Below are positions 6,266-58,911 of a stretch of DNA of 64,000 nt, piece after piece (the stretch's first letter is position 1; every line of letters starts with the position of its first letter). The stretch covers positions 1,056,001-1,120,000 of the forward strand of contig CAWGLD010000001.1 of NCBI GenBank assembly GCA_963823335.1, given 5' to 3'. Below the pieces are notes generated by a model. The model searched no databases, had not been told where the DNA came from, and saw only the letters and a program-made list of their open reading frames with translations. Origin of the DNA: an uncultured delta proteobacterium (lineage in GTDB: Bacteria > Desulfobacterota > Desulfobacteria > Desulfobacterales > B30-G6). Position numbers and translations under genes: made by a program.

Positions 6266-6595
6266 ACTTGTTGCAACCTCACTAGTTAAAAGACATCAAG
6301 CATTCTGTTGACGCAGCCGGAAGGCTGCGGCTATTATGTTTCATCAAATAGATTGAATGATTTTTCAAGTCCCACGATCGGGGATATTTAACACGGATAA
6401 AGAGATTATACAAGAAAAGATAGCTGTTTATCGCTTGGCCCATTTGATTGAATCCGCGGAATTCATCGGTATTTTTCTAAAAAGCTTGAACACTTCTAAA
6501 AGTTAGACATCATCAGGTGAATACCAGACAGCTGGATAATTTTGGGGATTCATTTTGCCGGCGCGAACATAACGCTGAATAAACAGGAGGTCGTC

Positions 6596-15044: not shown

Positions 15045-15950
15045 GTGTATCCCGGCACTATATTCGATGTCAAGCAGTATGCACTTCATGACGGTCCCGG
15101 TATCCGCACGACTGTATTTTTAAAAGGGTGTCCCCTCTGTTGTCAGTGGTGCCACAACCCTGAAGGCGTTGAGACGAACCCGCAGATCTTTTATCGGCAA
15201 AAGAGATGTATTGGCTGTGGTGAATGCCTGCTTGCCTGTCCGGAAAATGCTTTGTCCCTTACACCCGAAGGTGTCATCACAGACAGCGTTTTGTGTAAAT
15301 CAGAGGGCACTTGTGCCGCGGTCTGTCCCGCGGAAGCCAGGGAGTTGGTTGGAAAAACAGTTTCATCTGAGGAGATCGTTGAGATCGTCAAAAGAGATTC
15401 ACCTTTTTACAACCAGTCCGGCGGCGGAGTGACTTTTTCCGGTGGCGAGCCACTGATGCAACCGGATTTTCTTTTTGATTGTTTAAAACTGTGCGGCCGG
15501 GAGGGAATTCATCGTGCGGTGGACACCTCTGGATATGCCGAGTTAGAAATTATCAAGCAAATTGCCGGAGAAACCGACCTGTTCCTTTATGATCTGAAAT
15601 TTATTGACCCAGAGAAACACAGGCATTACACGGGTGTTTCAAATTCGTTGATTCTGGCGAATCTCAACTATCTGGCACGTTCGGGTGTCCAGGTCACGAT
15701 CCGCTTTCCCTTAATACCGGGTGTCAATGACAACGATGAAAGTATCGACCTCTTGGGTATGTTTCTCCGTAGCTTGCCAGAAATCAAAATAGTACATATC
15801 TTGCCCTATCATAGATATCAGGAGAAAAAGTATGTTCACCTCGATACGGTATACACTGTAAAAGATATTCCACTACCCACACCGGGCGATCTTACCCGGG
15901 TAAAAAAGCGACTGGAAAGCTTTGGCTTGAAGGTCGGCATAGGAGGCTGA
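15045..15950 (+). CDS. Glycyl-radical enzyme activating protein (HypD activase)
   Basis: HDGPGIRTTVFLKGCPLCCQWCHNPE; ferredoxin insert CIGCGECLLACP; GGVTFSGGEPL; GTG start with AGGAGG RBS. Confidence 0.93.
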   Translation: MYPGTIFDVKQYALHDGPGIRTTVFLKGCPLCCQWCHNPEGVETNPQIFYRQKRCIGCGECLLACPENALSLTPEGVITDSVLCKSEGTCAAVCPAEARELVGKTVSSEEIVEIVKRDSPFYNQSGGGVTFSGGEPLMQPDFLFDCLKLCGREGIHRAVDTSGYAELEIIKQIAGETDLFLYDLKFIDPEKHRHYTGVSNSLILANLNYLARSGVQVTIRFPLIPGVNDNDESIDLLGMFLRSLPEIKIVHILPYHRYQEKKYVHLDTVYTVKDIPLPTPGDLTRVKKRLESFGLKVGIGG

Positions 15951-15958
15951 CAGGAACA

Positions 15959-18319
15959 ATGAATGAGCGCATTGAAAAACTTCGTGAAGAGAGTTTTCGT
16001 GCTGAACCCTGTATCTCCATTGAACGGGCATTGCTGGAAACGGCTTTTTATAAGCAAAACCTTGGTATGTATTCCATACCGGTCATGCGGGCTTTGGTCT
16101 TTAAACACCTATGCGAAAAGAAAACAGTGTATATCGGAGAAGGCGAACTCATCGTGGGCGAGCGTGGTCCTTTCCCCAAAGCCGTCTCCACCTTTCCGGA
16201 GCTGACCTGCCACACGGCGGAAGACCTCATGACCTTGAATGAACGGAAAATGACGCGCTTTTCCATATCAGAAAACGACATTCTTATATATGAACGGGAG
16301 GTCATTCCCTACTGGCGCGGAAAGAGTATGCGTGATCGCGTCTTCAACCAGGTACCAAAAGAATGGCAAGACGCGTATCGATCGGGTCTCTTTACCGAAT
16401 TCATGGAACAACGTGCCCCGGGCCATACAAGCCTCGATGGCATCATATACGAAAAGGGAATGCTCGATTTTAAGAAAGATATCCACCAGACACTTGTCGA
16501 ACTCGACTATCTCAACGATCCGGAGGCCACCGAAAAGGCCGAAGAATTGAAAGCCATGGATATTTCCTGTGATGCCGCCATTGTTTTTGCTGAAAGACAT
16601 GCATCCCTGGCAGATACCATGGCGGTCTCCGAAGCGGATCCTAAGAGAAAAGCAGAGCTGCAGCAGATTGCCAGGGTTTGCAGGCGGGTACCTGCACATG
16701 CGCCGCAAGATTTCTGGGAGGCGATCCAGATGTACTGGTTTGTTCACCTGGGTACGATAACCGAGTTGAATGGTTGGGATGCCATGAGCCCGGGTCACCT
16801 CGACCAGCACCTGTATCCTTTTTATCTGAGGGGACTGGACAAAAAAACATTGGATCGCGATACGGCAAAGGAACTTCTCAGTTGTCTCTGGATCAAGATC
16901 AACAACCATCCCGCTCCTCCCAAAGTAGGTGTTACCGCCAAAGAGAGTGGTACCTATAACGATTTTACCAACATCAATCTGGGCGGTCTCCTGCGAGACG
17001 GCAGTGATGGCGTCAACGAGGTCTCATACATTATACTGGAAGTGATCGAAGAGCTTCATTTACTTCAGCCCCAGAGCAATGTGCAGATCAGTGAAAAAAC
17101 ACCGGATCGGTTTCTCCAGAAAACCGGTCGAGTTATCCGCAAGGGTTTTGGATACCCATCGGTTTTTAATGCCGATGCGGTGGTGATGGAGCAGATGAGA
17201 GTCGGCAAAAGTATCGAGGATGCCAGGGAGGGCGGGTGTAGTGGATGTATCGAAACCGGTGCGTTTGGAAAAGAAGCCTATATCTTGACCGGTTATCTGA
17301 ATATTCCGAAGCTCCTTGAACTGGCCTTGCACAATGGCGTGGATCCGCTTACGGGGAAGTCCGTCGGTGTAGAGACCGGTGACCCGGTCACGTTTGAGAC
17401 GTTCGATGACCTGTATGAAGCTTTTGAGCGTCAGCTTTGTTACATTGTGGACCTGAAAATCCGGGTCAACAACTACATCGAACGCATGTTTGCAGTAAAT
17501 GCCCCGGCCCCGTTCTTGTCGGTGGTCATCAGGGACTGCATTAAAAATGGAAAAGATTATTACAACGGCGGACCCCGGTACAACACCAATTATATCCAGT
17601 GCTGTGGTATCGGCACTGTTACGGACAGCCTTTCGGCAATCAAAAAGCACGTTTTTGAAGAGAAAACACTTACCCTGGATGCATTGCTCGATGCACTGAA
17701 GCTCAATTTCAGGGATCAGGAAGCGCTCAGGCTGCGCCTGGTGAACAAAACACCTTTTTTCGGCAACGATGATGACCGCGCAGATACCATCATGCAGCGG
17801 GTATACGAGTCTCTTTTCAACGCCATTGACGGGAAACCCAACACCAAGGGAAGTTCATATCATCTGAACATGCTTTCCACCACGTGCCATATCTACTTTG
17901 GCAAGATGCTCGGCGCTACACCCAATGGCAGATTTGCTGAAAAACCCATTTCCGACGGCACGTCACCGTCCCACGGCGCAGACCGCCATGGGCCCACTGC
18001 GGTTATTAAATCACTTTCCAAAATGGATCAGATCAAATCCGGAGGAACTCTTCTGAACCAGCGGTTTTTACCCAGCGCGCTGGAAAAAGATGAAGATATT
18101 GTCAAACTCTGGCACCTTATTCGTACATATTTCAAGCTCAAGGGGCACCATATCCAGTTCAATATTGTTGGAACGGAAACCCTTAAAAAAGCCCAGGCAG
18201 CACCGGAGGACTACAGAGATCTACTGGTGCGAGTCGCCGGCTACAGCGACTATTTTGTTGATCTGGATGAATTTCATCAGGAAGAAATTATTGCACGGAC
18301 GGAAAACGAGGTACTTTAG
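15959..18319 (+). CDS. hypD: trans-4-hydroxy-L-proline dehydratase (glycyl radical enzyme)
   Basis: EFMEQRAPGH, ELNGWDA, KESGTYNDF, SGCIE Cys loop, EAYILTGY, STTCHIYFG, RVAGYS Gly loop; these match the HypD active-site set as I recall it. Confidence 0.88.
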   Translation: MNERIEKLREESFRAEPCISIERALLETAFYKQNLGMYSIPVMRALVFKHLCEKKTVYIGEGELIVGERGPFPKAVSTFPELTCHTAEDLMTLNERKMTRFSISENDILIYEREVIPYWRGKSMRDRVFNQVPKEWQDAYRSGLFTEFMEQRAPGHTSLDGIIYEKGMLDFKKDIHQTLVELDYLNDPEATEKAEELKAMDISCDAAIVFAERHASLADTMAVSEADPKRKAELQQIARVCRRVPAHAPQDFWEAIQMYWFVHLGTITELNGWDAMSPGHLDQHLYPFYLRGLDKKTLDRDTAKELLSCLWIKINNHPAPPKVGVTAKESGTYNDFTNINLGGLLRDGSDGVNEVSYIILEVIEELHLLQPQSNVQISEKTPDRFLQKTGRVIRKGFGYPSVFNADAVVMEQMRVGKSIEDAREGGCSGCIETGAFGKEAYILTGYLNIPKLLELALHNGVDPLTGKSVGVETGDPVTFETFDDLYEAFERQLCYIVDLKIRVNNYIERMFAVNAPAPFLSVVIRDCIKNGKDYYNGGPRYNTNYIQCCGIGTVTDSLSAIKKHVFEEKTLTLDALLDALKLNFRDQEALRLRLVNKTPFFGNDDDRADTIMQRVYESLFNAIDGKPNTKGSSYHLNMLSTTCHIYFGKMLGATPNGRFAEKPISDGTSPSHGADRHGPTAVIKSLSKMDQIKSGGTLLNQRFLPSALEKDEDIVKLWHLIRTYFKLKGHHIQFNIVGTETLKKAQAAPEDYRDLLVRVAGYSDYFVDLDEFHQEEIIARTENEVL

Positions 18320-29999: not shown

Positions 30000-30023
30000 C
30001 TTCGGAGGTTGAGCATGAACCCT

Positions 30024-30059
30024 TTCTCCCAGCTAATTGGGAGAAGAGCCTCTTTTATT
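30024..30059 (+). terminator. Possible terminator after usp
   Basis: TTCTCCCA-gctaat-TGGGAGAA stem followed at a distance by a T-rich tract. Confidence 0.4.
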
Positions 30060-30341: not shown

Positions 30342-31814
30342 ATGGACTCGTTCGATACGGCTATTCATTTTCCCCACCTTCGAGTTTTATCGGATGATCA
30401 ACTTCGCAATATCTATCGGGCAACATTGAGCTGTCTGCAGCGAACAGGTGTTGAGGTTCACAACCAGGAAGCAAGAGAGCTTCTATACGATGCCGGTGCG
30501 GACATCGATGATCATCGCGTTCGTATCCCCTCTCATGTTATTGAAACCATTCTGAACGATGTGCCTAAAACGTTTACGATCTATGGTCAAAATCAAAAAT
30601 GGGATATGTTGATTGAATCAGGTCAGGTCAGATATGGAACAGGGCCGACCTGTACCTATTTCATGGATCCAGAAACCGGAAAAAAACACAAGACCCAAAA
30701 AAGCGACCCGGCCCTTACTGCTCTGGTTTGTGGTGCATTGGAAAATATAGATTATGTAATGTCCCTTGGACTGATAGACAATGTCACATCCACTTTGGCC
30801 TCTGTCCACGAGTTTGCCCAAATGATCACCCACACAGGCAAGCCGATTCTTGGCTGGGCTTTCAAGAAAGACCATCTCGAGGACATTTATAAAATTGCTT
30901 CCGCCGTTTCAGGAAGCGAAGAGGCTTTTCAGCTGCGACCCAATTTCGGCTTCTTTTCTACCTGGCAGGCACCTCTGGCGCATATGGATGAGGATCTGAG
31001 CAACTGTCTGTGGGCCCTGGAGAGGAATATTCCGATCATATATATCGGTGGCGGAGTGGCGGGGTTAACTGCGCCGGTAACTGGCGCCGGTCTCCTGGTT
31101 TCCAACCTTGCCAGCATGCTCAGCGGCATGGCCATATTTCAACTGAAGAAACCGGGGGCGCCCGTTTGCCTGGGCGCAGTTCCAGCACCCATGGATCTTC
31201 GTACCGCACGGATGGCCTATGGCGGACCCGAAATGAGTCTGTACTCTGCAGCGCTTTCAGAGATCACGCAATTTCTAAATATTCCCTTTATGGGGACTGC
31301 CGGCGCATCAGAATCCAAGGTAATGGATCTTCAGGCTGCCATCGAAAGCACTTTTCAAGTGGTACTGTCGCAGATGAGCAAAGCCAATATGGTACATGAT
31401 GTTGGCTTTCTCGACTGTGCCGATATTGGTTCACTTGAAATGCTGGTGATGACCGATGAGATCATTTCCCAGGCAAAACGGATTACCAGGGGTATAGAGG
31501 TTAGCGAGGAAACCTTGATGCTTGATCTCATCGATGAGGTAGGGACCAAAGGCAGTTTTATTGCAACCCCGCAAACGGCCAGGCGATGCCGGGAGGAAAT
31601 TTATACATCCGACCTGATGGATCGAAATGCATGGGCAACCTGGCAGGAAAGCGGTGCCAAAACCATGCTGGAGCGGGTACAAGAGAAACTTGCTGACATT
31701 CTATCCCAGCCTCCTTCAATTCAACTGTCTAGTGACGTCCTCGATCGTATATCGGGGATAATCCAGGCGGCTGAACAAAGAGAAGGTATTTTTCTTTTTG
31801 AAAACACAGGGTAA
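30342..31814 (+). CDS. Non-pyrrolysine MttB-family (trimethylamine methyltransferase superfamily) corrinoid methyltransferase
   Basis: LSDDQLRNIY..L...GV, TAPVTGAG, YGGPE, GTAGASESK, HDVGFLD, SLEMLVMTDE; no in-frame TAG. Confidence 0.9.
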   Translation: MDSFDTAIHFPHLRVLSDDQLRNIYRATLSCLQRTGVEVHNQEARELLYDAGADIDDHRVRIPSHVIETILNDVPKTFTIYGQNQKWDMLIESGQVRYGTGPTCTYFMDPETGKKHKTQKSDPALTALVCGALENIDYVMSLGLIDNVTSTLASVHEFAQMITHTGKPILGWAFKKDHLEDIYKIASAVSGSEEAFQLRPNFGFFSTWQAPLAHMDEDLSNCLWALERNIPIIYIGGGVAGLTAPVTGAGLLVSNLASMLSGMAIFQLKKPGAPVCLGAVPAPMDLRTARMAYGGPEMSLYSAALSEITQFLNIPFMGTAGASESKVMDLQAAIESTFQVVLSQMSKANMVHDVGFLDCADIGSLEMLVMTDEIISQAKRITRGIEVSEETLMLDLIDEVGTKGSFIATPQTARRCREEIYTSDLMDRNAWATWQESGAKTMLERVQEKLADILSQPPSIQLSSDVLDRISGIIQAAEQREGIFLFENTG

Positions 31815-31827
31815 GAAGGAGAAGGCT

Positions 31828-32613
31828 ATGTTTTCATCTCGTGATATGGGCATCAGAAACATCAGGGCACGCAAGGAGCACCGGTGCTATGGCATGGGAC
31901 TGGGCATCATTATTCTGGACGATGTGTATCCCGGGTTTCCCGGTGACGTTAGAAATGCCAGCGCCTACCCATTTCCCATTCAATTCGAGATTGCTGAAGA
32001 GGTAGATATCAAAGCGCTGGTGGTGGTGGAAGATAAGACACCCTGCCTGGAGCCGATTCAGGAGGCCGCTAAAAAACTGGAGAGAATGGGCTGTCGGGCC
32101 ATTGTCGCAGAGTGCGGTTATTTTGCTCTTTTTCAGAAGGAAATAGCCAAACACGTGAATGTCCCGGTTTTCATGTCCAGTCTCTTACAGGTCCCATGGG
32201 CACAGCAACTCGTGGGCCCAGATAAGCTCGTTGGTATCCTGGTGGCCGAAAAAATGTATCTTACGGATGCACATCTCGCCGCAGTTGATGTCGAGATCGG
32301 CAGCAACTATGTGATCGCCGGTGCTGAGGATGAATATCACTGTCCTGAATTCGAGCACCTGTGGAGCCAGTCAAAACGGACGGACCCGCCGGGTGCCAAT
32401 TATGAAAAAGCAGAATTCGATTTTGTTGCTGCAGGTGTCGACTTCTATCGTAAACATCCGAAAATGAGTGCCATGGTACTTGAATGTACAGGATTTCCCC
32501 CCTTTGCCAGAGCACTTCAGCGTGAGATCAACATTCCTTTGTTCAGTTGGGGAACACTTCTCGATTTTGCCTACGGCATCAGCGTCCACCGCGATTATTA
32601 CGGACATGTTTGA
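31828..32613 (+). CDS. Asp/Glu racemase superfamily protein, Alma1 DMSP-lyase-like clade
   Basis: LGIIILD..YP..PGDV, AECGYF..FQ, PVFMSSL, LECTGFPP; both catalytic Cys present. Confidence 0.75.
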   Translation: MFSSRDMGIRNIRARKEHRCYGMGLGIIILDDVYPGFPGDVRNASAYPFPIQFEIAEEVDIKALVVVEDKTPCLEPIQEAAKKLERMGCRAIVAECGYFALFQKEIAKHVNVPVFMSSLLQVPWAQQLVGPDKLVGILVAEKMYLTDAHLAAVDVEIGSNYVIAGAEDEYHCPEFEHLWSQSKRTDPPGANYEKAEFDFVAAGVDFYRKHPKMSAMVLECTGFPPFARALQREINIPLFSWGTLLDFAYGISVHRDYYGHV

Positions 32614-32723: not shown

Positions 32724-32807
32724 TAACCTCAAACAACAGTTATAAAAGCCCCAAGAATCCTTTTGGCCGAAAACTGGCAGGAGAGCGACCTTTTCAAAAG
32801 GAGTAAA

Positions 32808-34028
32808 ATGATGGATTTCGGAGCGCCTCACAAAGAGAACTTTTTAAGATATCTTGAAAATGAAACAACTGCCTTGAAGGAAAGCGGTCTTTACAAGACA
32901 GAACACGAGATTACCACTCCCCAGGCAGTGGAAATTACCATTCAAGATGATAAAAACTGTATCAACTTCTGTGCCAACAACTATCTTGGCCTCGCCAATC
33001 ATCCGGAGTTGATCAAGGCGGCACAGGACGGTGCAGGGCGATACGGGTTTGGCATGGCTTCTGTGCGGTTTATCTGTGGCACGCAGATACTTCATAAAGA
33101 CCTGGAAGCGCGCTTGAGTCGATTTCTGGGCACAGGGGACACCATTCTGTACTCTTCCTGTTTTGATGCCAATGGAGGTTTGTTTGAAACCATTCTTGGC
33201 CTGGAAGATGCTGTTATTTCAGATGAATTGAATCATGCATCCATCATCGATGGTGTTCGGTTATGTAAAGCCATGCGTTTCCGATATAAGAACAATGATA
33301 TGGATGATCTTGAAGCAAAACTTCGGGAAGCAGATAACGCAGGTGCCCGCTTCAAACTGATTGCCACCGATGGTGTCTTTTCCATGGACGGTATCATCGC
33401 CAATTTAAAAGTTATTTGTGATCTTGCCGACCAATATGGCGCCCTGGTCATGGTGGACGATTCTCATGCGGTGGGTTTTATGGGTAAAAATGGCCGCGGC
33501 ACACCGGAGTTTTGCGGTGTTGAAGACCGGATCGACATCCTGACCGGCACATTGGGAAAGGCCCTGGGGGGGGCGTCCGGGGGGTATACCAGCGGGAGTA
33601 AAGAACTGGTTGCCTGGCTGCGTCAGCGATCTCGGCCTTACCTGTTTTCCAACACCCTGGCACCCATGATTGCCGCAGCGTCTCTAAAAGTGCTGGACTT
33701 GTTAGACGAGAGCGATGAGCTTCGTGTCAAACTGATAAAAAACAATCAGTACTTCAGAACAGAAATGGAAGACCTGGGTTTTAACCTGGTACCGGGAGAG
33801 CATCCCATCATTCCAATCATGCTTGGTGATGCCAAGCTCGCATCGGAAATGGCCGATCGAATGCTAAAAGAAGGCATCTACGTTACCAGTTTCAGCTATC
33901 CGGTTGTCCCCAAAGGCAGGGCCCGCATTCGGACACAGATGTCTGCCGCTCACGAGAGACACCATCTGGACAAGGCTATCGCAGCTTTTGCAAAAGTGGG
34001 CCGTGATCTGGGTGTCATTTCATCATAG
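32808..34028 (+). CDS. kbl: 2-amino-3-ketobutyrate CoA ligase (glycine C-acetyltransferase)
   Basis: [42 protein letters not shown]. Confidence 0.95.
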
Positions 34029-34131: not shown

Positions 34132-35163
34132 ATGAAAGCGCTTGTAAAGGCAAAGCCGGAACCGGGTGTTTGGCTCTCAGATGTGGCCGAACCGGATGTC
34201 GGTATCAACGATGTGTTGATCCGGGTTCATAAAACCGCCATCTGTGGCACGGATGTCCATATCTATAACTGGAATGCCTGGGCCAGGAAAACAATTCCCA
34301 TCCCCATGCATTTTGGTCATGAATTTGTTGGTAAGGTGGTGGACACCGGTCAAAATGTTCACGATTTCAAACCAGGTGATATCGTGTCGGGTGAAGGACA
34401 CCTGGTTTGTGGAAAATGTCGCAACTGCCTGGCCGGCAGGAGACATCTGTGTATGAAAACCAGCGGTGTGGGTGTCAATCGACCGGGTGCCTTTGCTGAA
34501 TACCTGAGTATTCCGGTTACCAATGTCTGGTACTGTGACCCAAAGATCCCCATGGATATTCTGGCATGTTTTGACCCTCTGGGAAATGCGACCCATACCG
34601 CCCTCAGTTTTGATTTGCTGGGAGAGGATGTTCTTATCACCGGCGCAGGTCCCATTGGATGCATGGCCGCGGCCATCGCCAGGCACGCAGGAGCAAGGCA
34701 CGTGGTTGTCACCGATGTAAATACCTATCGTCTTGGGCTGGCAAAATCCATGGGAGCCACCATGACCCTGGATGTACGTAAAGAAAAAATTGAAGATGCC
34801 CAGGCGGCTCTGGGTATGAAGGAAGGGTTTGATGTGGGCATGGAAATGTCCGGCAACCCTGAAGCGCTTCAAAATATGCTTTCCAACATGTGTCACGGCG
34901 CCAAAATTGCACTTCTGGGAATACTTTCGCCGGAAACGACCATTAATTGGGATTTTGTCATTTTCAATGGTTTGACCATCCAGGGTATCTATGGTCGGGA
35001 AATGTATGAAACCTGGTATAAGATGACCGTCATGATTCAATCGGGTTTGGATATTCAGCCGATCATCACCCATCGATATGATTTCAGCGAGTACGAAGCC
35101 GCCTTTCAGGCAATGCGCTCCGGCCAATCAGGAAAAGTGATTTTAAACTGGTTTAGTGATTGA
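34132..35163 (+). CDS. tdh: L-threonine 3-dehydrogenase
   Basis: [51 protein letters not shown]. Confidence 0.95.
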
Positions 35164-35241: not shown

Positions 35242-35877
35242 ATGAACGATCTGTATGAAAAAATGGCCCAGGAGTTGATTACAGGAAATGTAGTGGAGGT
35301 CAAGAAGCTGACCCAGGAAGCCTTGGACAAGGGGGCTAATCCAAAGGAAGTGCTCGACAAAGGATTGTTGGCAGGTATGGAAGTTGTGGGTAAACGTTTC
35401 AAGGCTGGGGATATGTTTATTCCGGAAGTGCTGCTCTGCGCCAGAACCATGCATGCCGCCATGGATATTCTCAAGCCCCTTCTGTCGGATGCCGATGCAG
35501 CCGGGGCAGGTACCGTTGTTATCGGAACAGTAGAAGGAGACTTGCATGATATTGGAAAAAATCTGGTGGCGATGATGCTCCAGGGGGCAGGCTTCAAGGT
35601 CATCGATCTGGGTGTCAATATCAAGCCTCAGGGATTTGTCGATGCCGTCAAAGAACACAAACCCAATATCCTCGGCATGTCAGCACTTTTGACGACCACC
35701 ATGCCCAAGATGGCGGAAACCATCACGGCGCTCAAGGAAGCCGGTATTCGCGACCAGGTAAAAATCATGGCGGGTGGTGCACCTGTAACCCAGGATTTTA
35801 TCGAAAAAATCGGCGCGGATGCCTATGGTGCAAACGCTGCGTCCGCATCTGAAAACGCCAAAGCACTTATTGCCTGA
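35242..35877 (+). CDS. Methyltransferase cognate corrinoid protein (MttC/MtgC-like)
   Basis: Cap domain GMEVVG..F...FIPE; EGDLHDIGKN (DxHxxG); SALLTTT; GGAPV. Confidence 0.92.
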   Translation: MNDLYEKMAQELITGNVVEVKKLTQEALDKGANPKEVLDKGLLAGMEVVGKRFKAGDMFIPEVLLCARTMHAAMDILKPLLSDADAAGAGTVVIGTVEGDLHDIGKNLVAMMLQGAGFKVIDLGVNIKPQGFVDAVKEHKPNILGMSALLTTTMPKMAETITALKEAGIRDQVKIMAGGAPVTQDFIEKIGADAYGANAASASENAKALIA

Positions 35878-41122: not shown

Positions 41123-42958
41123 ATGGGCATCTACGGCAAGATACTGAATGTCGACCTGACAGAAAAGCGACATTTTTTTTCACCTCTTCAGGACCTGACA
41201 TTAAAAACTTCCATCGGCGGAAGAGGGTTCAACGTGGCCTATCTGTATGACCGTTTTTCAGAGGAGATCGATCCTCTTGGAAAAGACAACTGTTTGCTCT
41301 TCAGTTGTGGTCTTCTCACCGGGACCGCCGCCCCGGCATCTTCACGTCTGCATATCAATGCCGTCTCACCCCTGACCGGTCTTTTGGGGAGTTCGAACAT
41401 CGGAGGCCAGGCCGGCGCATGGCTGCGGTCCTGCGGCCTGCAAAGCATCATTGTCCGAGGCCGATCAGACAATCTTGTATACCTGTATATTGAAGATGCT
41501 CGTGCAGAAATCCGCGATGCCCGCTTTTTAAAAGGTCTTGATACCTTTGAGACTCAGGAAAGAATCAAGGATGTCCTGGGAAACCGTCACCTGACCTGCC
41601 TGGTCATTGGTCCTGCAGGGGAAAACTTGGCCAGGTTCGCCTGTATCATATCCGGCAGGGATCACGCAGCCGGAAGGACCGGTATGGGTGCTGTCATGGG
41701 GTCAAAAAACCTCAAGGCCATTGTATTGGCAAAAGGGGGTAAAAGGAAGTTCCCGGTAAAAACATCCCTGGCCAGGGAGGCTGTCAAGCTATATGCCAAA
41801 AAGATCAAAGCCTCTCCAGACTTTAAAACCTTTGCGCAATATGGTGGCGCCGGATATGTGAAATGGGCCGACGACATGGGTATCATGCCCGCACGTAACT
41901 ATCGGGAAAATCGCTTTTCTCAGGTGGACAGCATCGATGGAAAACATCTGGACGTATTCAAACTCAAATCCAGCGGGTGCTACAATTGTCCGGTTCAGTG
42001 CAAAGCGATTCTCAGCTTTGACCGGAAAAAAAAACCTGAGAAAACAGCAACCCGGCCAGAGTTCGAACCCATGCTGAATATCGGTGCCAAATGTGGTCTG
42101 AATGATCTTGAGGCCATCGTTTATCTCGACAATCTTTGTTCAAAATTCGGCATCGATTCCACGTCAGCCGCCGCCACCATGGCGTTTGCCATGGATCTCT
42201 ATGGTCGCGGTATTTTGACCCGGAAAGACACCCATGGTCTGGACCTGACCTGGGGCAATGCCCATGTGATGGAAACCCTCATAACCCAAATGGCGTTTGC
42301 AGAAGGTTTTGGCGCGCTTCTCTCGAAAGGCGTCAGACAGGCCGCCAGGGTTATCGGTAAAGGTGCTGATCAATACGCCGCCCATGTCAAGGGGCTGGAG
42401 CTGTCTGCATATCACCCGGGAAGTATCATGGGTACGGCCCTGGGATACGCTGTTTCCAGTCGTGGTGGTGATTATAACAATGTGTATGCCTCCCTTGAAT
42501 ACCGCTGGTCCAAGGAGCAGGCCACCAGACATTTCGGTAGTCCGGAAGCCGTTGACATGCAGGCCACCCGCGGTAAGGGAAAGCTGATTCGCCGGGCCGT
42601 TCTGGTGAATATCGTTCTTGATTCCCTGGGGATATGCAAGGTGCCGGCCCTAAGTATGATCGGGACCTTCGACCTAAAAAGTGAAGCGACCCTTGCCAGT
42701 TCCCTGTTGAATCTTCCCGTTACAGCCGACGAACTCTTTGCAGTTGGAGATCGTATCGCAAGTCTGGAAAGGGGATTCAACCTGAGACAGGCGCCCGGTA
42801 TGGCCGGGGATACCCTGCCGTCCATGTTTATGGATCAACCCGGTTCTAATCTGAACCAGGAGACACTCGACGAAATGATAGGTGATTATTACACGGCCAT
42901 GGGCTGGGATAAAAATGGAAACCCGGACCCAGACTTACTGAAAGGCACAGGTAAATGA
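41123..42958 (+). CDS. Aldehyde:ferredoxin oxidoreductase family (W/Mo-pterin) protein
   Basis: IGGRG, SPLTG, IGPAGEN, GRTGMGAVMGSKNLKAI, CYNCPVQC, DSLGIC, YY..MGWD. Confidence 0.92.
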   Translation: MGIYGKILNVDLTEKRHFFSPLQDLTLKTSIGGRGFNVAYLYDRFSEEIDPLGKDNCLLFSCGLLTGTAAPASSRLHINAVSPLTGLLGSSNIGGQAGAWLRSCGLQSIIVRGRSDNLVYLYIEDARAEIRDARFLKGLDTFETQERIKDVLGNRHLTCLVIGPAGENLARFACIISGRDHAAGRTGMGAVMGSKNLKAIVLAKGGKRKFPVKTSLAREAVKLYAKKIKASPDFKTFAQYGGAGYVKWADDMGIMPARNYRENRFSQVDSIDGKHLDVFKLKSSGCYNCPVQCKAILSFDRKKKPEKTATRPEFEPMLNIGAKCGLNDLEAIVYLDNLCSKFGIDSTSAAATMAFAMDLYGRGILTRKDTHGLDLTWGNAHVMETLITQMAFAEGFGALLSKGVRQAARVIGKGADQYAAHVKGLELSAYHPGSIMGTALGYAVSSRGGDYNNVYASLEYRWSKEQATRHFGSPEAVDMQATRGKGKLIRRAVLVNIVLDSLGICKVPALSMIGTFDLKSEATLASSLLNLPVTADELFAVGDRIASLERGFNLRQAPGMAGDTLPSMFMDQPGSNLNQETLDEMIGDYYTAMGWDKNGNPDPDLLKGTGK

Positions 42959-44403
42959 CCGATATGGGAAATGGATTCAAACCCGAATTAAGAGTGTTGT
43001 CTCTGGAAGATAAAGAGAAAATTTTCAATGCTGCCTTACAGGTATTGGAAGGTGTGGGTATGCAGTTGTTCCATGACGAGGCTCTTGCTCTCATGGAAAG
43101 GGCCGGCAGTGTTGTGACAGGCAAGCAAACCGTCAAGATACCCCGAAAACAGGTGCTAAAAGCCATTGCTTCCGCACCGGAGAATATCCCCGTCTACAAC
43201 CGCGAGGGGGAACACGTAATGGATCTGGGCGGGCGAAGGGCCTATTTCGGTACCGGCTCCGACCTGATGTACGCTTACGACGCGGATAAAGGGGAACGTC
43301 ATTTGACCGGTCTGCCCGACATTGAGCGTGCGGCACGGGTGTGTGATGCCCTGCCGAATATCGATTTTATCATGTCTTTTGCACATCCCCAGGAACTGCA
43401 CCCCGACGCAGCCTATCTGGAGAGCTTTCAATGCATGGCGTTAAATTCCGTCAAGCCCATCGTGAATACAGCCAAGGACCGAGGCGATCTGTCCGCCATG
43501 TGGGAAATCAGCAAAATATTGCGGGGCAGCGAGGCGGATTGCCGTCAGAAACCCTACACCATCCAGTATGCAGAACCCATCAGTCCCCTCAAGCATCCCT
43601 ATGCGAGTATTGACAAACTTATTTTCTGTGCGGAAAAAGGCATGCCGGTCATCTACTCACCCGCTCCCATTGCCGGATCGACGGCGCCCATGACCATTGC
43701 CGGCCATGTTGTCCAGGGGTTGGCGGAATGTCTATTCGGGCTTGTCATACACCAGTTGATCACCGAAGGCGCACCGTTCCTGATGGGTATCGGCACCGCC
43801 GTGCTGGACATGAGCACGAGCCAGTGTTCCTACAATGCACCGGAATACCTGATGGCCTACCTGGCAACGGTTGAAATGAGTCACCATCTCAACTTGCCGA
43901 ACTGGGGCTATGCCGGAACCAGTGATGCGCAGATACCGGATGGCCAGGCAACCTTCGAGGCCGGCTTGATGTCTTATCTATCACTTGTTGCAGGATCGAA
44001 CCTGAACCATGATGTGGGGTATCTCGATTTTGGGCTGACCGGGTCTCTCGAAATGGTGGTCATCATGGACGAGGTAATCGATCAGATTCGCAGGATGCAA
44101 CAGGGAATACCCGTAAACGAGGAGACTCTGGCTGTACAGGTTATCGAGGAAGGCGCCCGCCGGGGCGAGTTTTTGTCCCACCCACACACCTTGACCCATT
44201 TGCGCAGCACCCAATGGCGACCCCAGCTCATGAACCGCATGGGGCATGATCAGTGGGATCTATCCGGCAGGAAAGATCTTCTGTTACGGGCCCGGGAAGT
44301 GTTGAAAAAAATCATGGATACGCATCAGGCAAGATCCGTCTCCAAGGACCAGGTCGTTCAGATTCAGGCCTGTATGGATCGGTTTCATAAAAATGTTCTA
44401 TAA
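42955..44403 (+). CDS. Non-pyrrolysine MttB-family methyltransferase
   Basis: YAEPISPL, GSTAPMTIAG, YNAPE, GYAGTSDAQ, HDVGYLD; ATGA overlap with the AOR gene. Confidence 0.9.
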   Translation: MTDMGNGFKPELRVLSLEDKEKIFNAALQVLEGVGMQLFHDEALALMERAGSVVTGKQTVKIPRKQVLKAIASAPENIPVYNREGEHVMDLGGRRAYFGTGSDLMYAYDADKGERHLTGLPDIERAARVCDALPNIDFIMSFAHPQELHPDAAYLESFQCMALNSVKPIVNTAKDRGDLSAMWEISKILRGSEADCRQKPYTIQYAEPISPLKHPYASIDKLIFCAEKGMPVIYSPAPIAGSTAPMTIAGHVVQGLAECLFGLVIHQLITEGAPFLMGIGTAVLDMSTSQCSYNAPEYLMAYLATVEMSHHLNLPNWGYAGTSDAQIPDGQATFEAGLMSYLSLVAGSNLNHDVGYLDFGLTGSLEMVVIMDEVIDQIRRMQQGIPVNEETLAVQVIEEGARRGEFLSHPHTLTHLRSTQWRPQLMNRMGHDQWDLSGRKDLLLRAREVLKKIMDTHQARSVSKDQVVQIQACMDRFHKNVL

Positions 44404-46878: not shown

Positions 46879-46948
46879 ACCGTCAACGAACAAGCGACAC
46901 CGTCGCGGATTATAAAATCGGTCCAACGATTTTATGGAGGAAACAGAA

Positions 46949-48265
46949 ATGGTGGAAAATGTTATTATCATGGGCGCTGCCGGTCGGGATTTTCATAATT
47001 TTAACGTCTATTTCAGAGATAATCCGAGGTACAATGTCATCTGTTTTACCGCCACGCAGATTCCTGACATCGATGGGCGCCAGTACCCTTCCCAGCTTGC
47101 CGGGTCCATGTATCCCCATGGGATTCCCATAAGAAGTGATGAGCGATTGATGGAAATGATCAAAGAGGACAAGATCGACCTGGTAGCCTTTTCATACAGT
47201 GATGTCCCCCACACGGAGGTGATGCACAAAGCTTCTCAGGCCATCGCCGCCGGGGCAGATTTTATCATCATCGGCGCATCCTATACCATGATCCCCTCCA
47301 CGAAAAAGGTTGTTTCGGTTTGTGCCATACGGACCGGCTGCGGGAAATCCCAGACCAGCAGACAAATCGTACAGGTTCTCAAAGACGCGGGGGAGAAAGT
47401 CGTTTCCGTTCGTCATCCCATGCCTTACGGGGATTTGACCAAGCAGATTGTTCAGCGCTTTGCCACCTATGAAGATTTTGCGAAACATGCCTGCACCATT
47501 GAAGAACGCGAAGAATATGAACCGGTGGTTGATATGGGGGCCATCATATATGCAGGCGTGGACTACGAGAAAATACTCCGTCTGGCCGAACAGGAAGCGG
47601 ACATTATCGTTTGGGACGGCGGTAACAATGATACACCGTTTTACAAACCGGATGTGCATGTGGTGGTTTTCGACCCGCACCGTGTTGGTCATGAAACAAC
47701 GTTCCATCCCGGCGAAGCAAACATGCTGCTGGCCGATATCGCTGTCATCAACAAGGTGGACAGTGCCGATCCTAAGGATGTGGAAACGCTGAAGAAGACT
47801 ATCGCACGGCACAACCCCAATGCCCGAATTGTTTTAGCCGATTCAGAAGTAAGCGCTGATAACGGAGAAAGCATGCTGGGCAAACGTGTTCTGGTCATTG
47901 AGGATGGACCGACCCTTACGCATGGGAATATGACATTCGGTGCCGGTGTCATTGCAGCGCAGCGTTACGGGGCGGCAGAGATGGTGGATCCACGGCCGTA
48001 CCTGGTGGGATCTCTCAGGCAAACCTTCCAGACCTATCCGGAAATCGGTAAGGTGCTTCCGGCCATGGGATATGGCGACCAACAGGTGAAAGACCTGGAG
48101 GCGACCATTGATGCATGTGCGTGTGATATGGTTGTTTCGGCCACGCCCATAGATCTGACACGACTGGTGAAAATCAAGAAACCGATCCTCCGGGTCCGCT
48201 ATAACTACCGGGACAACAGCGTACCCACCCTGGGTGAACTTGTCATAGAAATGCTCAATTGTTAA
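46949..48265 (+). CDS. arcE: Arginine synthetase ArcE-like protein (usually annotated cyclic 2,3-diphosphoglycerate synthase/GTPase)
   Basis: MGAAGRDFHNFN, FTATQIP, RTGCGKSQT P-loop, RHPMPYG, TIEEREEYE, WDGGNND, EDGPTLTHG; flanked by rocD and carbamate kinase. Confidence 0.78.
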   Translation: MVENVIIMGAAGRDFHNFNVYFRDNPRYNVICFTATQIPDIDGRQYPSQLAGSMYPHGIPIRSDERLMEMIKEDKIDLVAFSYSDVPHTEVMHKASQAIAAGADFIIIGASYTMIPSTKKVVSVCAIRTGCGKSQTSRQIVQVLKDAGEKVVSVRHPMPYGDLTKQIVQRFATYEDFAKHACTIEEREEYEPVVDMGAIIYAGVDYEKILRLAEQEADIIVWDGGNNDTPFYKPDVHVVVFDPHRVGHETTFHPGEANMLLADIAVINKVDSADPKDVETLKKTIARHNPNARIVLADSEVSADNGESMLGKRVLVIEDGPTLTHGNMTFGAGVIAAQRYGAAEMVDPRPYLVGSLRQTFQTYPEIGKVLPAMGYGDQQVKDLEATIDACACDMVVSATPIDLTRLVKIKKPILRVRYNYRDNSVPTLGELVIEMLNC

Positions 48266-53230: not shown

Positions 53231-56146
53231 TCACATTTTCATGCGTTCGCCTTCAGGGTCATAAAAGGGCATGGGAACCACCCTGGCGTTCAACCGTTTT
53301 TCGTTGCATTCATCTTCATAAATTTGCAGTCGTGAGCCCGGTTTGCTGAGTTGGGATTCCACCAGGGCCATGCCCACGGCTTCTCCGGTGGTAAAGCTTT
53401 TTCGGGCCGTAGCCACGTATCCGCGAACGCGGGTGTCTACGATCAAGGCCCCGTCCCGGGGTGCCCGGGTATCGTCTTCCATACGTATGCCCACCAATTT
53501 GAACCGGCCGGGGTCGTTTTCGGCCTGACGGAGGGCCACAGAGCCGACAGTTTTGGCATCTGCTTTTTTTCGATCCCAGAGGAATCCCAGGCCCAGGTCC
53601 AGGAGGTTGGTCCGTTGCTCTGACTCCTGCCCGAGAATAATGTGGCCTTTTTCCATACGCAGCACATTCTGGGCTTCCAGGCCAAAATTCTGGATATTAA
53701 ATTCAGCGCCAGCGGCCATCAGCATGTCCCAGACAGATTGCATGTAAGAGGCGGGCACATGAAGTTCATATGATAATTCGCCCACAAAACCCAGACGCAT
53801 GGCGCGTACCGGAATCGTGTTTTTAATAGTGAACTCACAGTATCCGGCATAAGGGAAGGCTTTGTTGGATATGTCGGCATCCACTATTTTTGTTAAAACC
53901 TTGCGGGCATTGGGTCCGGAAACGTTGATCACACCCATGGCATCGGTGAGGTTGACCATGTGGTATTTCCACCCATCGTAGCGCGTGTGAAATCGGAACC
54001 ACTCCACGGTATTACCGGCCCGTCCGCTGGATGTCGTGATGTAGTAGTCATTATCACCCCGTTTAATCACGATTCCGTCATCGATAACACAGCCGTCATC
54101 ATTGCACATGGCGGAATATTTGATACGGCCTGTTTTGATGCGGCTCATGTCAGACACATAAAGACGTTGAAGGGCCTTGAGTGCATCCGGACCGAAAATT
54201 CGAAATTTTCCCAGGGTAGAACTGTCCAGCATGCCCACGTTATTGCGTACATTGAGAATTTCATTCTTGCATTCGAAATCCTGGGAAAAGTACCGAGCTC
54301 TCTGCCAAACACCAATGTTGCGGAAGATACCGCCCTCTTTTTTCTGGGACACATGTAAAGGAGTTCGTTTGAACATATGATGGTGGGCACCTGCATAGGT
54401 TGCCAGAAGCGTGGGCACCAGCGGTGGCCGCACGGTTGTGGGCATAGGCTTGGAAACAGCGGCCGTGTATTTAGACACATAGAGTGGCAGATTATGACCC
54501 GGAATGCCCCCCTGACCCGGTCCGGTGCCTGCCGAGGTAAATCGCTTGATCAGCTCTGGGACATCAAAGCCCATATCGATGGCCTGCTTGATATTTTTGA
54601 TGGTGGTGTCCTCGTCAAAGCAGATAAAACTTTTCCGTCCTTTTACCGGGGCTGTGACCAGTTTGCAGCCCCGGTCTGCTCCGGGCAGTAGATCTGCTGC
54701 CTTTTGAGCGCTGGAGACTGTATCATCATCGGCCAGGCCTATGACGGCTAATGCCTTTTTAGCGGCCAATCGGCCTGAAGCCTCAATAGATAGCGGATGA
54801 TTGCATCCGGTCATTCGGCCTGCTGAAAACATCTTTTCAGGTAGTTTCTGGGGCAGGAAATATCCGGTGTGGTTGTCATAGGTCATTTTGGCCTGAGCCA
54901 GAATCAAGGGACCATTCACAGGTGTGTGCCCGGCTGACGCTACCAGCAGGTCGCAGGGGATTTGACGCCTGATGGTTCCGTCCAGCGTGCTCAGGGTCAC
55001 CTTGGTTACCTTTTTGCAGCCATAAGTTTTGGCGGCAACCCAGCCCTTGAGTACCGGCACCTTTCTTTGAGCGAGTGCCTCAAGCAGGCTGTCGTCATGG
55101 CCATCCTCGCGGATATCGGCCACGGTTTGGATCTTAAGACCCAGGTCAAACAAATCAAGTGCAGCCTCGAGCCCCAGGTCATGACCTACGCTGAAAACAG
55201 CTTCTTTACCGGGCAGAAGACCATAGCTTCGAGCCAGGCGATGGGCGCAGGCCACCTGCATGACGCCGGGTCTTTCGTTGTTCTCAAAAACCAGGGGTCG
55301 CTCGATACAACCGGTGGCGACCACCACGCTTTTGGAACGGATTTCGATATAGCGCTCCGTAAAGGCATCGTCACGCTTGCCCACCTGAAAGGCCGTGATT
55401 AGATTGTTGTTGTAAGCGCCCACCATGGAGGTATGTTTAAACACCCGGAGATTGGGAGCATTTTCCACCTGTTTCGCCAATTCTCTGGACCGGGTGAAAA
55501 GCGGTGTGCTTTCATTGTACGCGGCCGTCCGGTAATCCCAGCTTCCGCCCAGGTATGGTCGCGATTCCAATAGAACAACCCGAACGCCCGCTTCCGCAGC
55601 AGTCAGGGCTGCCATCATACCGGCAGCACCACCGCCGATAACACACACATCGGCTGTCAGGAAGATTTCATCATAGCGGCCTTTTACCTCGTAATTGGCG
55701 GAGATGGTTCCCACGCCTGCGGCTTTACGGATAGCTTTCATGGCAACGGGCCAGATCGCTGCCGGCTTGTGCATGGTCTTGTAATAGAAACCAGCCGGCA
55801 TCATCCAGTCTAATTTATCGGTAAATGCCATCAAGTCAAATTCCGCCGAGCCCTTGACGTTCTGGGCCTTGACCACCATTCCGTCTTTAAGCAGTGTGTT
55901 TTCAGTTCTCACATTGGGCACGCCATCCACTTCCATACAGGTGTTGCTGGATTCACCGTCAAGGCTGTACAACCCCCTGGGGCGATGATATTTCAGGCTG
56001 CGCGAAAAAATCCGGATACCATTGGAATAAAGAGCAGTTGCAACCGTATCTCCGGAAAATCCCTGATATGATTTTCCCCGATAGGCCAGAGAACGTGTTT
56101 CACCGGTATCGATCCGCAGCGTTGGCAATTCATGAAGCCTGTTCAT
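53231..56146 (-). CDS. soxA: Sarcosine oxidase alpha-subunit family (NAD-binding plus GcvT folate domain)
   Basis: GDTVATAL, SRSLKYHRPRG, AGFYYKT, GGGAAG, FENNERPG, IKRFTSAGTGPGQG, GFVGELSYE, LRMEKG. Confidence 0.9.
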   Translation of the reverse strand: MNRLHELPTLRIDTGETRSLAYRGKSYQGFSGDTVATALYSNGIRIFSRSLKYHRPRGLYSLDGESSNTCMEVDGVPNVRTENTLLKDGMVVKAQNVKGSAEFDLMAFTDKLDWMMPAGFYYKTMHKPAAIWPVAMKAIRKAAGVGTISANYEVKGRYDEIFLTADVCVIGGGAAGMMAALTAAEAGVRVVLLESRPYLGGSWDYRTAAYNESTPLFTRSRELAKQVENAPNLRVFKHTSMVGAYNNNLITAFQVGKRDDAFTERYIEIRSKSVVVATGCIERPLVFENNERPGVMQVACAHRLARSYGLLPGKEAVFSVGHDLGLEAALDLFDLGLKIQTVADIREDGHDDSLLEALAQRKVPVLKGWVAAKTYGCKKVTKVTLSTLDGTIRRQIPCDLLVASAGHTPVNGPLILAQAKMTYDNHTGYFLPQKLPEKMFSAGRMTGCNHPLSIEASGRLAAKKALAVIGLADDDTVSSAQKAADLLPGADRGCKLVTAPVKGRKSFICFDEDTTIKNIKQAIDMGFDVPELIKRFTSAGTGPGQGGIPGHNLPLYVSKYTAAVSKPMPTTVRPPLVPTLLATYAGAHHHMFKRTPLHVSQKKEGGIFRNIGVWQRARYFSQDFECKNEILNVRNNVGMLDSSTLGKFRIFGPDALKALQRLYVSDMSRIKTGRIKYSAMCNDDGCVIDDGIVIKRGDNDYYITTSSGRAGNTVEWFRFHTRYDGWKYHMVNLTDAMGVINVSGPNARKVLTKIVDADISNKAFPYAGYCEFTIKNTIPVRAMRLGFVGELSYELHVPASYMQSVWDMLMAAGAEFNIQNFGLEAQNVLRMEKGHIILGQESEQRTNLLDLGLGFLWDRKKADAKTVGSVALRQAENDPGRFKLVGIRMEDDTRAPRDGALIVDTRVRGYVATARKSFTTGEAVGMALVESQLSKPGSRLQIYEDECNEKRLNARVVPMPFYDPEGERMKM

Positions 56147-58877: not shown

Positions 58878-58911
58878 ATATCCTCAACAGGTAGCAATGG
58901 AAGGAGTTATC

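Follow-up and report, generated by a model that had tools for sequence, protein, structure and literature searches.

Gene organization of the locus

The subject of this work is a pair of adjacent forward-strand genes (positions 30342 to 32613) carried by a 64,000-nucleotide stretch of the genome of an uncultured Desulfobacterales bacterium, this whole stretch being called the window hereafter. The first gene encodes a methyltransferase of the MttB family and the second a two-cysteine enzyme of the Asp/Glu racemase superfamily, named Rac below. The first-pass annotation of the window had described an MttB gene followed 13 nucleotides (nt) further on by a racemase-superfamily gene, with a corrinoid protein 2.6 kb downstream on the same strand, and all three are present in this arrangement. 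The features of the locus are the following.

30023..30046, + strand: terminator-like hairpin after the upstream usp gene; a 10-pair stem then a T-run, recognized by consensus match alone
30342..31814, + strand: MttB-family open reading frame (ORF), 490 amino acids (aa), uninterrupted; TAA stop at 31812-31814
31815..31827, + strand: spacer of 13 nt, GAAGGAGAAGGCT, carrying the ribosome-binding site of the Rac gene
31828..32613, + strand: Rac, two-cysteine enzyme of 261 aa with an ATG start; PRK07475/Alma-related branch of the Asp/Glu racemase superfamily
32763..34028, + strand: kbl, glycine C-acetyltransferase (NF005394, 680.6 bits, cut-off 460)
34132..35163, + strand: tdh, L-threonine 3-dehydrogenase (NF003808, 566.1 bits, cut-off 380)
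35242..35877, + strand: corrinoid (B12-binding) protein, presumed methyl acceptor of MttB (PF02310 and PF02607 matches)

The hairpin at 30023-30046 is likely to be the 5' boundary of the MttB transcription unit, and no terminator was predicted between Rac and kbl. The ORF listing offers an alternative start for Rac, an upstream TTG at 31798 that overlaps the MttB gene; the ATG at 31828 was retained since it fits the ribosome-binding site and gives 261 aa, the length of most listed homologues. In the case of kbl, the true start is likely to be the ATG at 32808, after a GGAG. The corrinoid gene begins 2,629 nt past the Rac stop, and kbl and tdh, both genuine by their equivalog scores, sit between it and the MttB-Rac pair.

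RNA-derived contigs matching the locus were found in four estuarine metatranscriptome libraries. The MttB/Rac junction is spanned in three of the four runs (31548-32180, 31603-32007 and 31740-32223), and a single contig (34303-35624) links tdh to the corrinoid gene. These contigs give modest support for expression of the locus in situ.

The MttB protein and its probable substrate range

The MttB protein matches PF06253 over residues 9-472 (253.7 bits, cut-off 25), while the score obtained with TIGR02369, the model of the pyrrolysine-type MttB, is 360 bits, i.e., under the cut-off of 525. In the alignment with the solved Methanosarcina chain 7xcl_A, the pyrrolysine position is occupied by Ala322, and the gene contains no in-frame stop; the product is thus a non-pyrrolysine member of the MttB superfamily, as had been proposed by the first-pass annotation. 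It is presumed to be a substrate:corrinoid methyltransferase (MT1). About 19 full-length MttB genes are present in the window genome.

Several non-pyrrolysine systems acting on quaternary amines are described: MtgB/MtgC/MtgA for glycine betaine, MtpB for proline betaine, MtcB for carnitine, MtyB for gamma-butyrobetaine and MthB for phosphocholine. As in these systems, the window contains a PF06253 TIM-barrel methyltransferase devoid of pyrrolysine and a B12-binding protein in the same string of genes, and the window genome contains homologues of the pterin methyltransferase and of the RACo-type activator. The MttB protein matches the solved MtgB chains 9yce and 2qne with 167.6 bits. The glycine-betaine-binding residues of MtgB are Y97, R312, H348 and F356, according to the accessible part of PMC13080624. 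When mapped by hand from the 9yce_A alignment (chain index offset of 2), they correspond to Pro102, Met317, His352 and Ala360 of the window MttB, which, unlike MtgB, thus keeps the histidine only and which belongs to a separate clade. Since only one of the four binding residues is kept, glycine betaine is an unlikely substrate. Pro102, Met317, His352 and Ala360 do not vary among 21 clade members, nor do Asp353, Asp358 and Asp361. Taken together, these conserved acidic residues and the missing carboxylate-binding Arg hint at a substrate with an extra positive charge.

Rac belongs to the family that contains Alma but lies outside the Alma clade

Rac matches the NCBIfam subfamily PRK07475 (NF005679, «hypothetical protein») over residues 12-260 of 261, with 251.1 bits for a cut-off of 231. 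This is one of four NCBIfam matches at E <= 0.01. The match to PF01177 (Asp_Glu_race) covers residues 60-116 only and, at 30.6 bits, is narrowly under the cut-off of 31; the asp_race and CuyB models give 16-18 bits. Only one solved chain appeared in the sequence comparison, the aspartate racemase 1jfl, with an E value of 0.54. Homologues are numerous: 1,862 at E <= 0.001 in a word-index search (among the best 120 of them, which were listed, identity is 71-89% and most are unnamed) and 1,743 in a representative library, including 111 at E <= 1e-30. The ESM Atlas returned only clusters named «aspartate/glutamate racemase family protein». Given the family scores of both proteins, the 1,862 homologues of Rac and the cover by RNA-library contigs, the MttB and Rac genes are not chance ORFs.

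The motifs quoted for Rac by the first-pass annotation are all found in the translation, which contains LGIIILDDVYPGFPGD, AECG, FQ, PVFMSSL and LECTGFPP. A tandem protein of 687 aa from Gymnodinium smaydae is 27% identical to Rac (E = 2e-22 pairwise and 7e-31 against the library) and contains LGVIRLDYNYPP..GD, GDCGF, PVFMSS and LECTELPP. In the alignment with the dinoflagellate Alma-like proteins P0230 and P0258, all four motif blocks and both cysteines are common to these proteins and to Rac. It should be noted that the label «Alma-like» relies on the organism name given by the source and on the motif blocks, no sequence of the tree being named Alma1 by its source.

The two cysteines had been reported as kept, and this holds on a larger sample: among 53 family members C96 is kept in at least 90% and C220 in all, and both cysteines and the surrounding motifs are invariant among 21 clade members. 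C96 aligns with Cys82 of 1jfl, which we take to be catalytic, and C96 and C220 are presumed to be the catalytic cysteines of Rac. The family motif would place C220 on the second pseudo-symmetric half of the protein. The AlphaFold2 (AF2) model of Rac has a predicted local distance difference test (pLDDT) score of 92.6, and a Foldseek comparison with the PDB gave aspartate racemase, arylmalonate decarboxylase, hydantoin racemase and glutamate racemase with template modelling scores of about 0.5-0.6, no entry titled Alma being found among the matches listed.

A tree of 144 rows was computed with FastTree. Rac falls in a bacterial clade of 44-45 rows (support 99), the eukaryote-like rows form a clade of their own (support 100, stem 1.29) within the bacterial radiation, and the one canonical Asp_Glu_race outgroup stands on a branch of length 3.0; Rac is thus not grouped with the ordinary Asp/Glu racemase. 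By sequence, Rac is far nearer to the dinoflagellate Alma-like proteins than to the solved racemases, and it is a member of the Alma-containing family placed outside the Alma clade. Of the likeness to Alma1 put forward in the first-pass annotation, relatedness is retained (E = 7e-31 with the G. smaydae protein) and a place inside the eukaryotic Alma-like clade is not.

This bears on the first alternative, i.e., that Rac is a beta-elimination lyase of the Alma type. Such an enzyme would take the alpha-proton off dimethylsulfoniopropionate (DMSP) or beta-alanine betaine, dimethyl sulfide (DMS) or trimethylamine (TMA) being expelled and acrylate left, or it would act on the demethylated product (3-methylthiopropionate or N,N-dimethyl-beta-alanine). 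The homology with the dinoflagellate proteins, the four shared motif blocks and the two cysteines are in agreement with such a function. According to the accessible part of PMC5395565, Alma1 acts by alpha-proton abstraction followed by beta-elimination and has homologues in certain bacteria; in the same source, however, only some of the Alma paralogues tested cleave DMSP. With respect to the Alma/Alma1 DMSP lyases of Emiliania huxleyi and Symbiodinium, Rac belongs to the same branch of the superfamily, as judged from the dinoflagellate Alma-like sequences; it differs from Alma-like proteins by its identity (27%), by its separate and well-supported bacterial clade and by its architecture, a single domain of 261 aa, as against 687 and 718 aa for the two eukaryote-like proteins examined, both of them tandem forms. 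Because Rac lies in a separate bacterial clade, outside that of the eukaryotic Alma-like proteins, DMSP-lyase activity cannot be transferred to it.

The pairing of Rac with MttB is specific to the Rac clade

Scanning species-representative genomes gave 123 relatives of Rac, of which the best 80 loci, from 80 species genomes and with Rac 63-91% identical, were used. An MttB gene lies at most 300 nt from Rac in 47 of these 80 loci (on the same strand in 44), one gene away in 10 and further off within the locus in 2. The pairing is found in Chloroflexota, in Thermodesulfobacteriota and in one of two Spirochaetota loci.

These 80 loci were selected via Rac, whereas two samples of 201 genomes each, from Desulfobacteria and from Anaerolineae, were selected otherwise. 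The former contains 11 further genes of the Rac clade, with MttB at 300 nt or less in 6 and at 1.7 kb or less in 9; in the latter, 7 of 9 Rac-clade genes adjoin MttB. As a control, 40 second-tier relatives (27-39% identity) from MttB-rich Desulfobacteria were considered: none adjoins MttB and two have it within 5 kb. The adjacency expected by chance was estimated at about 1%, from some 20 MttB genes in 4.4 Mb. The linkage to MttB is far over chance and, since no second-tier relative adjoins MttB, it is specific to the Rac clade; for the same reason, a linkage of the entire PRK07475-like family was rejected.

These counts also bear on the possibility that the two genes have no functional coupling, Rac being an ordinary amino-acid racemase (e.g., of Asp or Glu) of D-amino-acid metabolism that hitch-hikes in gene-dense methylamine islands. 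The fold of Rac and its weak sequence matches to Asp, Glu and hydantoin racemases would fit, as would the 21 of 80 loci devoid of MttB, all five alphaproteobacterial ones included, and with about 19 full-length MttB genes in the window genome some adjacency is expected. Nevertheless, about 1% by chance has to be compared with 47/80, 7/9 and 6/11 observed and with 0/40 for the second-tier relatives; the association recurs over gene orders, phyla and MttB clades; and the evidence for an ordinary racemase is a PF01177 match just under its cut-off and a best solved racemase at E = 0.54. This possibility is thus regarded as very unlikely.

It is extremely unlikely, in turn, that Rac acts by binding to MttB or to the corrinoid protein, as a non-catalytic or regulatory partner. 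Tight translational coupling (the 13-nt spacer) and same-strand adjacency in 44 of 80 loci would be expected of such a partner, but the invariance in the clade of both catalytic-type cysteines and of the motifs argues for catalysis, and most of the Anaerolineae MttB genes that belong to the clade of the window MttB work without Rac (see below). A complex prediction for MttB and Rac gave scores of 0.00 and 0.00 and was counted neither way.

The contexts of Rac in which MttB is missing (alphaproteobacteria, Bathyarchaeota and others) are heterogeneous, the only recurring neighbour being a divergent LysR regulator. In the locus from a Bathyarchaeota chromosome (L019, 5826-9121), Rac is preceded by an S-adenosylmethionine synthetase and followed by a protein of the enolase superfamily (MR_MLE), and the nearest 7 kb contain no MttB. 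Six of the 40 second-tier relatives (L096, L101, L103, L105, L106 and L120) have a Thr-dehydratase/EutB-like PALP gene within 5 kb, which may represent a pairing of the EutA/EutB kind, apart from MttB.

Dependence is one-directional and recruitment of Rac is repeated

The window MttB falls in a clade of 62 rows (support 99), called clade X, in which none of the 18 other own-genome MttB paralogues of the tree is found. The 201 Anaerolineae genomes contain 31 clade-X-like MttB genes in 29 genomes (47-100% identical to the Chloroflexota query), of which only two adjoin Rac, and 6 of the 29 genomes hold any Rac-clade gene. Among the 201 Desulfobacteria genomes, G000, G157 and G124 are the only ones with a clade-X gene (45% identity or more to the window MttB), and in each case it is adjacent to Rac. 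The idea that a clade-X MttB always requires Rac was rejected on the basis of the Anaerolineae sample, the impression given by the first tree being an artefact of the choice of loci via Rac. With 2 of 31 genes adjoining Rac, the dependence is therefore one-directional and Rac is an optional accessory, not a core subunit. The co-occurrence with MttB suggested by the first-pass annotation is conserved and non-random; the view of an obligate pair does not hold.

Clade X is divided into two subclades:

(i) X1 contains 26 Anaerolineae rows, 24 with no Rac nearby and two in loci with Rac further off, and 7 Rac-adjacent Desulfobacterales rows, including the window MttB, in which the order is MttB then Rac.

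(ii) X2 contains 29 rows from Chloroflexota; most of them are adjacent to Rac, and Rac comes before MttB.

Moreover, at least five clades other than X also contain Rac-adjacent MttBs. Two gene orders on separate branches of clade X and these other clades point to a repeated recruitment of Rac to MttB genes of several clades.

A second Rac copy of the own genome (L081, segment C8:1-16000; 55% identical, 4842-5619) is interrupted by stops and stands beside an MttB of another clade. Broken MttB fragments and an intact MttB (5826-7316, - strand) are found next to it, followed in the same locus by genes for an amidase, a HutI-like amidohydrolase, a histidine/aromatic ammonia-lyase, an M20 peptidase and ATP-binding cassette (ABC) transporter components. 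This MttB clade and its ammonia-lyase context recur in L054 and L071.

Gene neighbours and methyl-transfer machinery

The 45 commonest clusters of neighbours were surveyed in the 80 Rac loci, and only part of them is annotated. The recurring families are the following (number of loci out of 80).

34/80: Cys/Met-type enzyme dependent on pyridoxal phosphate (PLP), Cys_Met_Meta_PP, under every NCBIfam cut-off
27/80: Opp/Dpp-type ABC transporter components
15/80: DUF1638
14/80: Thr-dehydratase/EutB-like PALP enzyme
11/80: conserved protein of 433 aa («C8»), with no family
5/80: RidA
5/80: pterin methyltransferase
3/80: RACo-type activator
3/80: histidine ammonia-lyase and amidohydrolase

Matches of the class I/II aminotransferase type are also found in several Rac loci. 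In the annotated part of the 45 clusters there is no acrylate-handling family, and the annotated neighbour families of the 80 loci contain no pointer to DMSP. The picture given by the neighbours is that of an imported amino-acid-like compound whose demethylated product would enter amino-acid catabolism, unlike DMSP cleavage. A module for an onium compound, as proposed in the first-pass annotation, is a fair description of the locus, although the pointer to DMSP is not borne out by these neighbours. According to that annotation, some sulfate reducers of the Desulfobacterium type demethylate DMSP and glycine betaine.

The same survey completes the evidence concerning an Alma-type lyase. The genomic partners of Rac are MttB and amino-acid enzymes, which are its frequent neighbours, instead of acrylate genes; if one substrate served both a lyase and a demethylase, the two enzymes would be in competition; and elimination of a thiolate or an amine from a free carboxylate is harder than that of a sulfonium. 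The recurrent Cys/Met-type PLP enzyme, best matched by O-succinyl- and O-acetylhomoserine sulfhydrylase models under their cut-offs, could on the other hand capture methanethiol. On the whole the lyase function is considered unlikely.

This PLP enzyme leads to another alternative, a module for S-methylmethionine or methionine, in which MttB would make methionine from the sulfonium amino acid S-methylmethionine, a Cys/Met-type PLP gamma-lyase would give 2-oxobutyrate, and Rac would handle the stereochemistry of the alpha-carbon in one of these amino acids. The Cys_Met_Meta_PP enzyme of the 34 loci is usually directly upstream, and it stays with Rac where MttB belongs to a different clade, and also where a URO-D-type methyltransferase stands in place of MttB, as in L062. 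RidA and the Thr-dehydratase-like enzyme, both tied to 2-oxobutyrate/enamine chemistry, recur, and the S-adenosylmethionine synthetase adjoins Rac in the Bathyarchaeota locus. In the window MttB, Met, Pro and Ala replace the Arg and the two aromatic residues of MtgB, and the invariant Asp353, Asp358 and Asp361 could bind a second positive charge. However, the window genome has no close copy of the PLP enzyme (the nearest one, at 34% identity, is encoded elsewhere), the pair of the window sits with kbl and tdh instead, and the PLP enzyme is under all NCBIfam cut-offs. Natural S-methylmethionine is the L form, which leaves no obvious role for a racemase, and no link of MttB with S-methylmethionine was found in the literature searched. 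Such a module is quite unlikely.

Concerning methyl transfer, the corrinoid protein of the window matches TIGR02370 with 219 bits (cut-off 215.3), and the MtgC model NF047996 with 249.1 bits, under the cut-off of 370. A homologue of the pterin methyltransferase (36% identity) and RACo-like homologues (26-29%) are encoded elsewhere in the window genome, and homologues of both are also found inside Chloroflexota Rac loci. kbl and tdh are flanked by other amino-acid genes, i.e., serB-like, serK-like, lysA, dapL and hisHF.

Two other neighbours deserve mention. In Chloroflexota, the protein C8 (about 430 aa; L051:4509-5810 and 10 other loci) is flanked by RidA and by the PALP enzyme, a short way upstream of Rac. 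It has no Pfam or NCBIfam match, its 11 copies show a mean column identity of 75%, and its AF2 model (pLDDT 64.9) has weak TIM-barrel-like Foldseek matches (E >= 3e-3) which are of no help in naming a substrate. A copy 53% identical is present in the window genome (C5:315872-317128); its distance to an MttB gene is about 6 kb, and that to genes of an Opp-type transporter about 9 kb. In two close relatives (L007:7786-9751 and L001:2504-3400), a diaminopimelate epimerase of the DapF type (218.8 bits, cut-off 114.65) directly follows Rac; in L007 it is itself followed by a MtaA/CmuA-like URO-D methyltransferase, under cut-offs, and by a second MttB. The window does not contain this insert.

Comparison with other racemase-superfamily systems

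No racemase-superfamily partner was found for the described MttB systems in the literature searched: the accessible part of PMC12478193 does not contain the word «racemase», and the only racemase named in that of PMC9303578 is lactate racemase. No paper joining Alma1 with MttB was found, no paper on both MttB and a racemase was among those listed, and the titles and abstract openings of the literature on MttB and DMSP contain nothing on a Rac-MttB pairing.

Two systems can be compared with Rac on other grounds. In hydroxyectoine catabolism, EutA is a racemase-superfamily protein paired with EutB, a PLP enzyme resembling threonine dehydratase. The Rac of Chloroflexota lies directly after a PALP enzyme whose best NCBIfam match is EutB (230 bits, cut-off 413); unlike EutA, Rac has no match to the EutA model among its four NCBIfam matches at E <= 0.01, and no other ectoine genes were seen. 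HpbD, a 4-hydroxyproline betaine 2-epimerase/proline betaine racemase of aerobic betaine catabolism, belongs to the enolase superfamily. It offers a functional analogy to the role proposed below for Rac, being an epimerase of a betaine alpha-carbon within a demethylation pathway; it differs from Rac by an unrelated fold, a metal-dependent mechanism and oxygenase-type demethylases in place of MttB.

Other features of the window and of the genome

A glycyl-radical trans-4-hydroxy-L-proline dehydratase, HypD (15959-18319, + strand; 1215.6 bits, cut-off 1100), and its activase (15045-15950; 356 bits, under 425) are encoded 12 kb upstream of the MttB-Rac pair, outside its operon, and the other Rac loci show no recurrence of such a gene. 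HypD could tie the island to the use of hydroxyproline or of its betaine. A 690-aa ORF at 4193-6265 (- strand) has no Pfam family at E <= 1e-5.

The end of the window (41123-63910) is a methylated-amine island. It contains an aldehyde:ferredoxin oxidoreductase, then a second non-pyrrolysine MttB (42955-44403), a GntR regulator, an ornithine aminotransferase, a 443-aa ORF with no family (46934-48265), a carbamate kinase, the alpha and beta subunits of an electron-transfer flavoprotein, a SoxA-like protein (53231-56146), a SoxB-like protein and a fusion resembling dimethylglycine dehydrogenase (58834-61329). A very divergent MttB-like ORF (61411-62916, 72.6 bits only) follows, and another MttB is cut by the window end.

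The own genome encodes PylS (C2:79183-79914; 326.6 bits, cut-off 178) and six full-length MttB genes that each contain one in-frame TAG (C1:1189294, C1:641204, C6:92898, C7:56467, C2:84112 and C1:162064), plus one fragment. The source organism therefore probably uses pyrrolysine, judging from these genes. The expansion of the genetic code in marine Deltaproteobacteria is the subject of PMC8318568.

Proposed role of the Rac-MttB pair

The reading tentatively favoured is a corrinoid-dependent demethylation of a chiral, amino-acid-like onium compound, in which Rac would be an accessory enzyme, either a racemase or an epimerase. MttB would move one methyl from the onium compound onto the Co(I) corrinoid protein (35242-35877), from which it would pass to tetrahydrofolate via the pterin methyltransferase encoded elsewhere in the genome. 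Rac would be a cofactor-independent two-thiol enzyme performing a two-base 1,1-proton transfer at the carbon beside the carboxylate, either on the chiral substrate of MttB or on its demethylated product, the outcome being racemisation or 2-epimerisation. A second stereoisomer could in this manner enter the pathway or reach stereospecific downstream enzymes. The racemase-superfamily fold of Rac and the conservation of both thiols support this role, and betaines have a more acidic alpha-proton than amino-acid zwitterions do.

The first-pass annotation had left the choice between demethylation plus elimination and demethylation plus racemisation. Racemisation is preferred because Rac is optional, is associated with many MttB clades and has amino-acid enzymes as neighbours, and because acrylate genes do not recur. 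An accessory that widens the pool of usable stereoisomers fits this optional status better than an obligatory step does, and an obligatory demethylation followed by elimination agrees less well with it.

Several points weigh against a role as accessory racemase or epimerase: (i) MttB is missing in 21 of the 80 Rac loci, 10 of which have at least 5 kb of flank on each side, and it is absent from 5/5 alphaproteobacterial, 1/1 betaproteobacterial and 1/1 Bathyarchaeota loci; (ii) Rac is 63-91% identical across loci while the partner MttBs are often just 21-38% identical to that of the window, and varied MttB substrates are hard to reconcile with one constant Rac substrate, so that Rac would have to read a shared head group; (iii) a lyase of the Alma type would fit the two conserved cysteines equally well, since the dinoflagellate Alma-like proteins keep the same motifs; (iv) no D-specific or epimer-specific enzyme was identified downstream; (v) kbl and tdh accompany the pair in 5 of the 80 loci only, all from close Desulfobacterales relatives, and may be mere synteny; (vi) the RNA-library contigs are no proof of one transcript, as RNA libraries may contain DNA.

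A broader proposition, which we regard as doubtful, is that the members of the Rac clade are racemases or epimerases of onium carboxylates (betaines or sulfonium amino acids), the first to work with two thiols and no cofactor, and that they were recruited independently to at least seven MttB lineages. PRK07475/Alma would then be a family of the «onium-carboxylate alpha-proton» type, of which the algal DMSP lyase would be one offshoot. If this were true, sediment anaerobes would draw methyl groups from both stereoisomers of chiral methylated osmolytes.

A DMSP-specific role finds no support at this locus. The Rac-MttB pairing probably helps sediment anaerobes to feed on a methylated osmolyte, and such osmolytes are major precursors of methane, TMA and DMS in anoxic sediments. 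Most non-pyrrolysine MttB enzymes, as well as the bacterial relatives of Alma1, have no assigned substrate or function, and a clade-specific link that has apparently evolved repeatedly provides a concrete and testable hypothesis for both families. The one-directional dependence indicates that Rac should be treated as an accessory, most likely governing which stereoisomer is usable, and not as a part of the methyltransferase.

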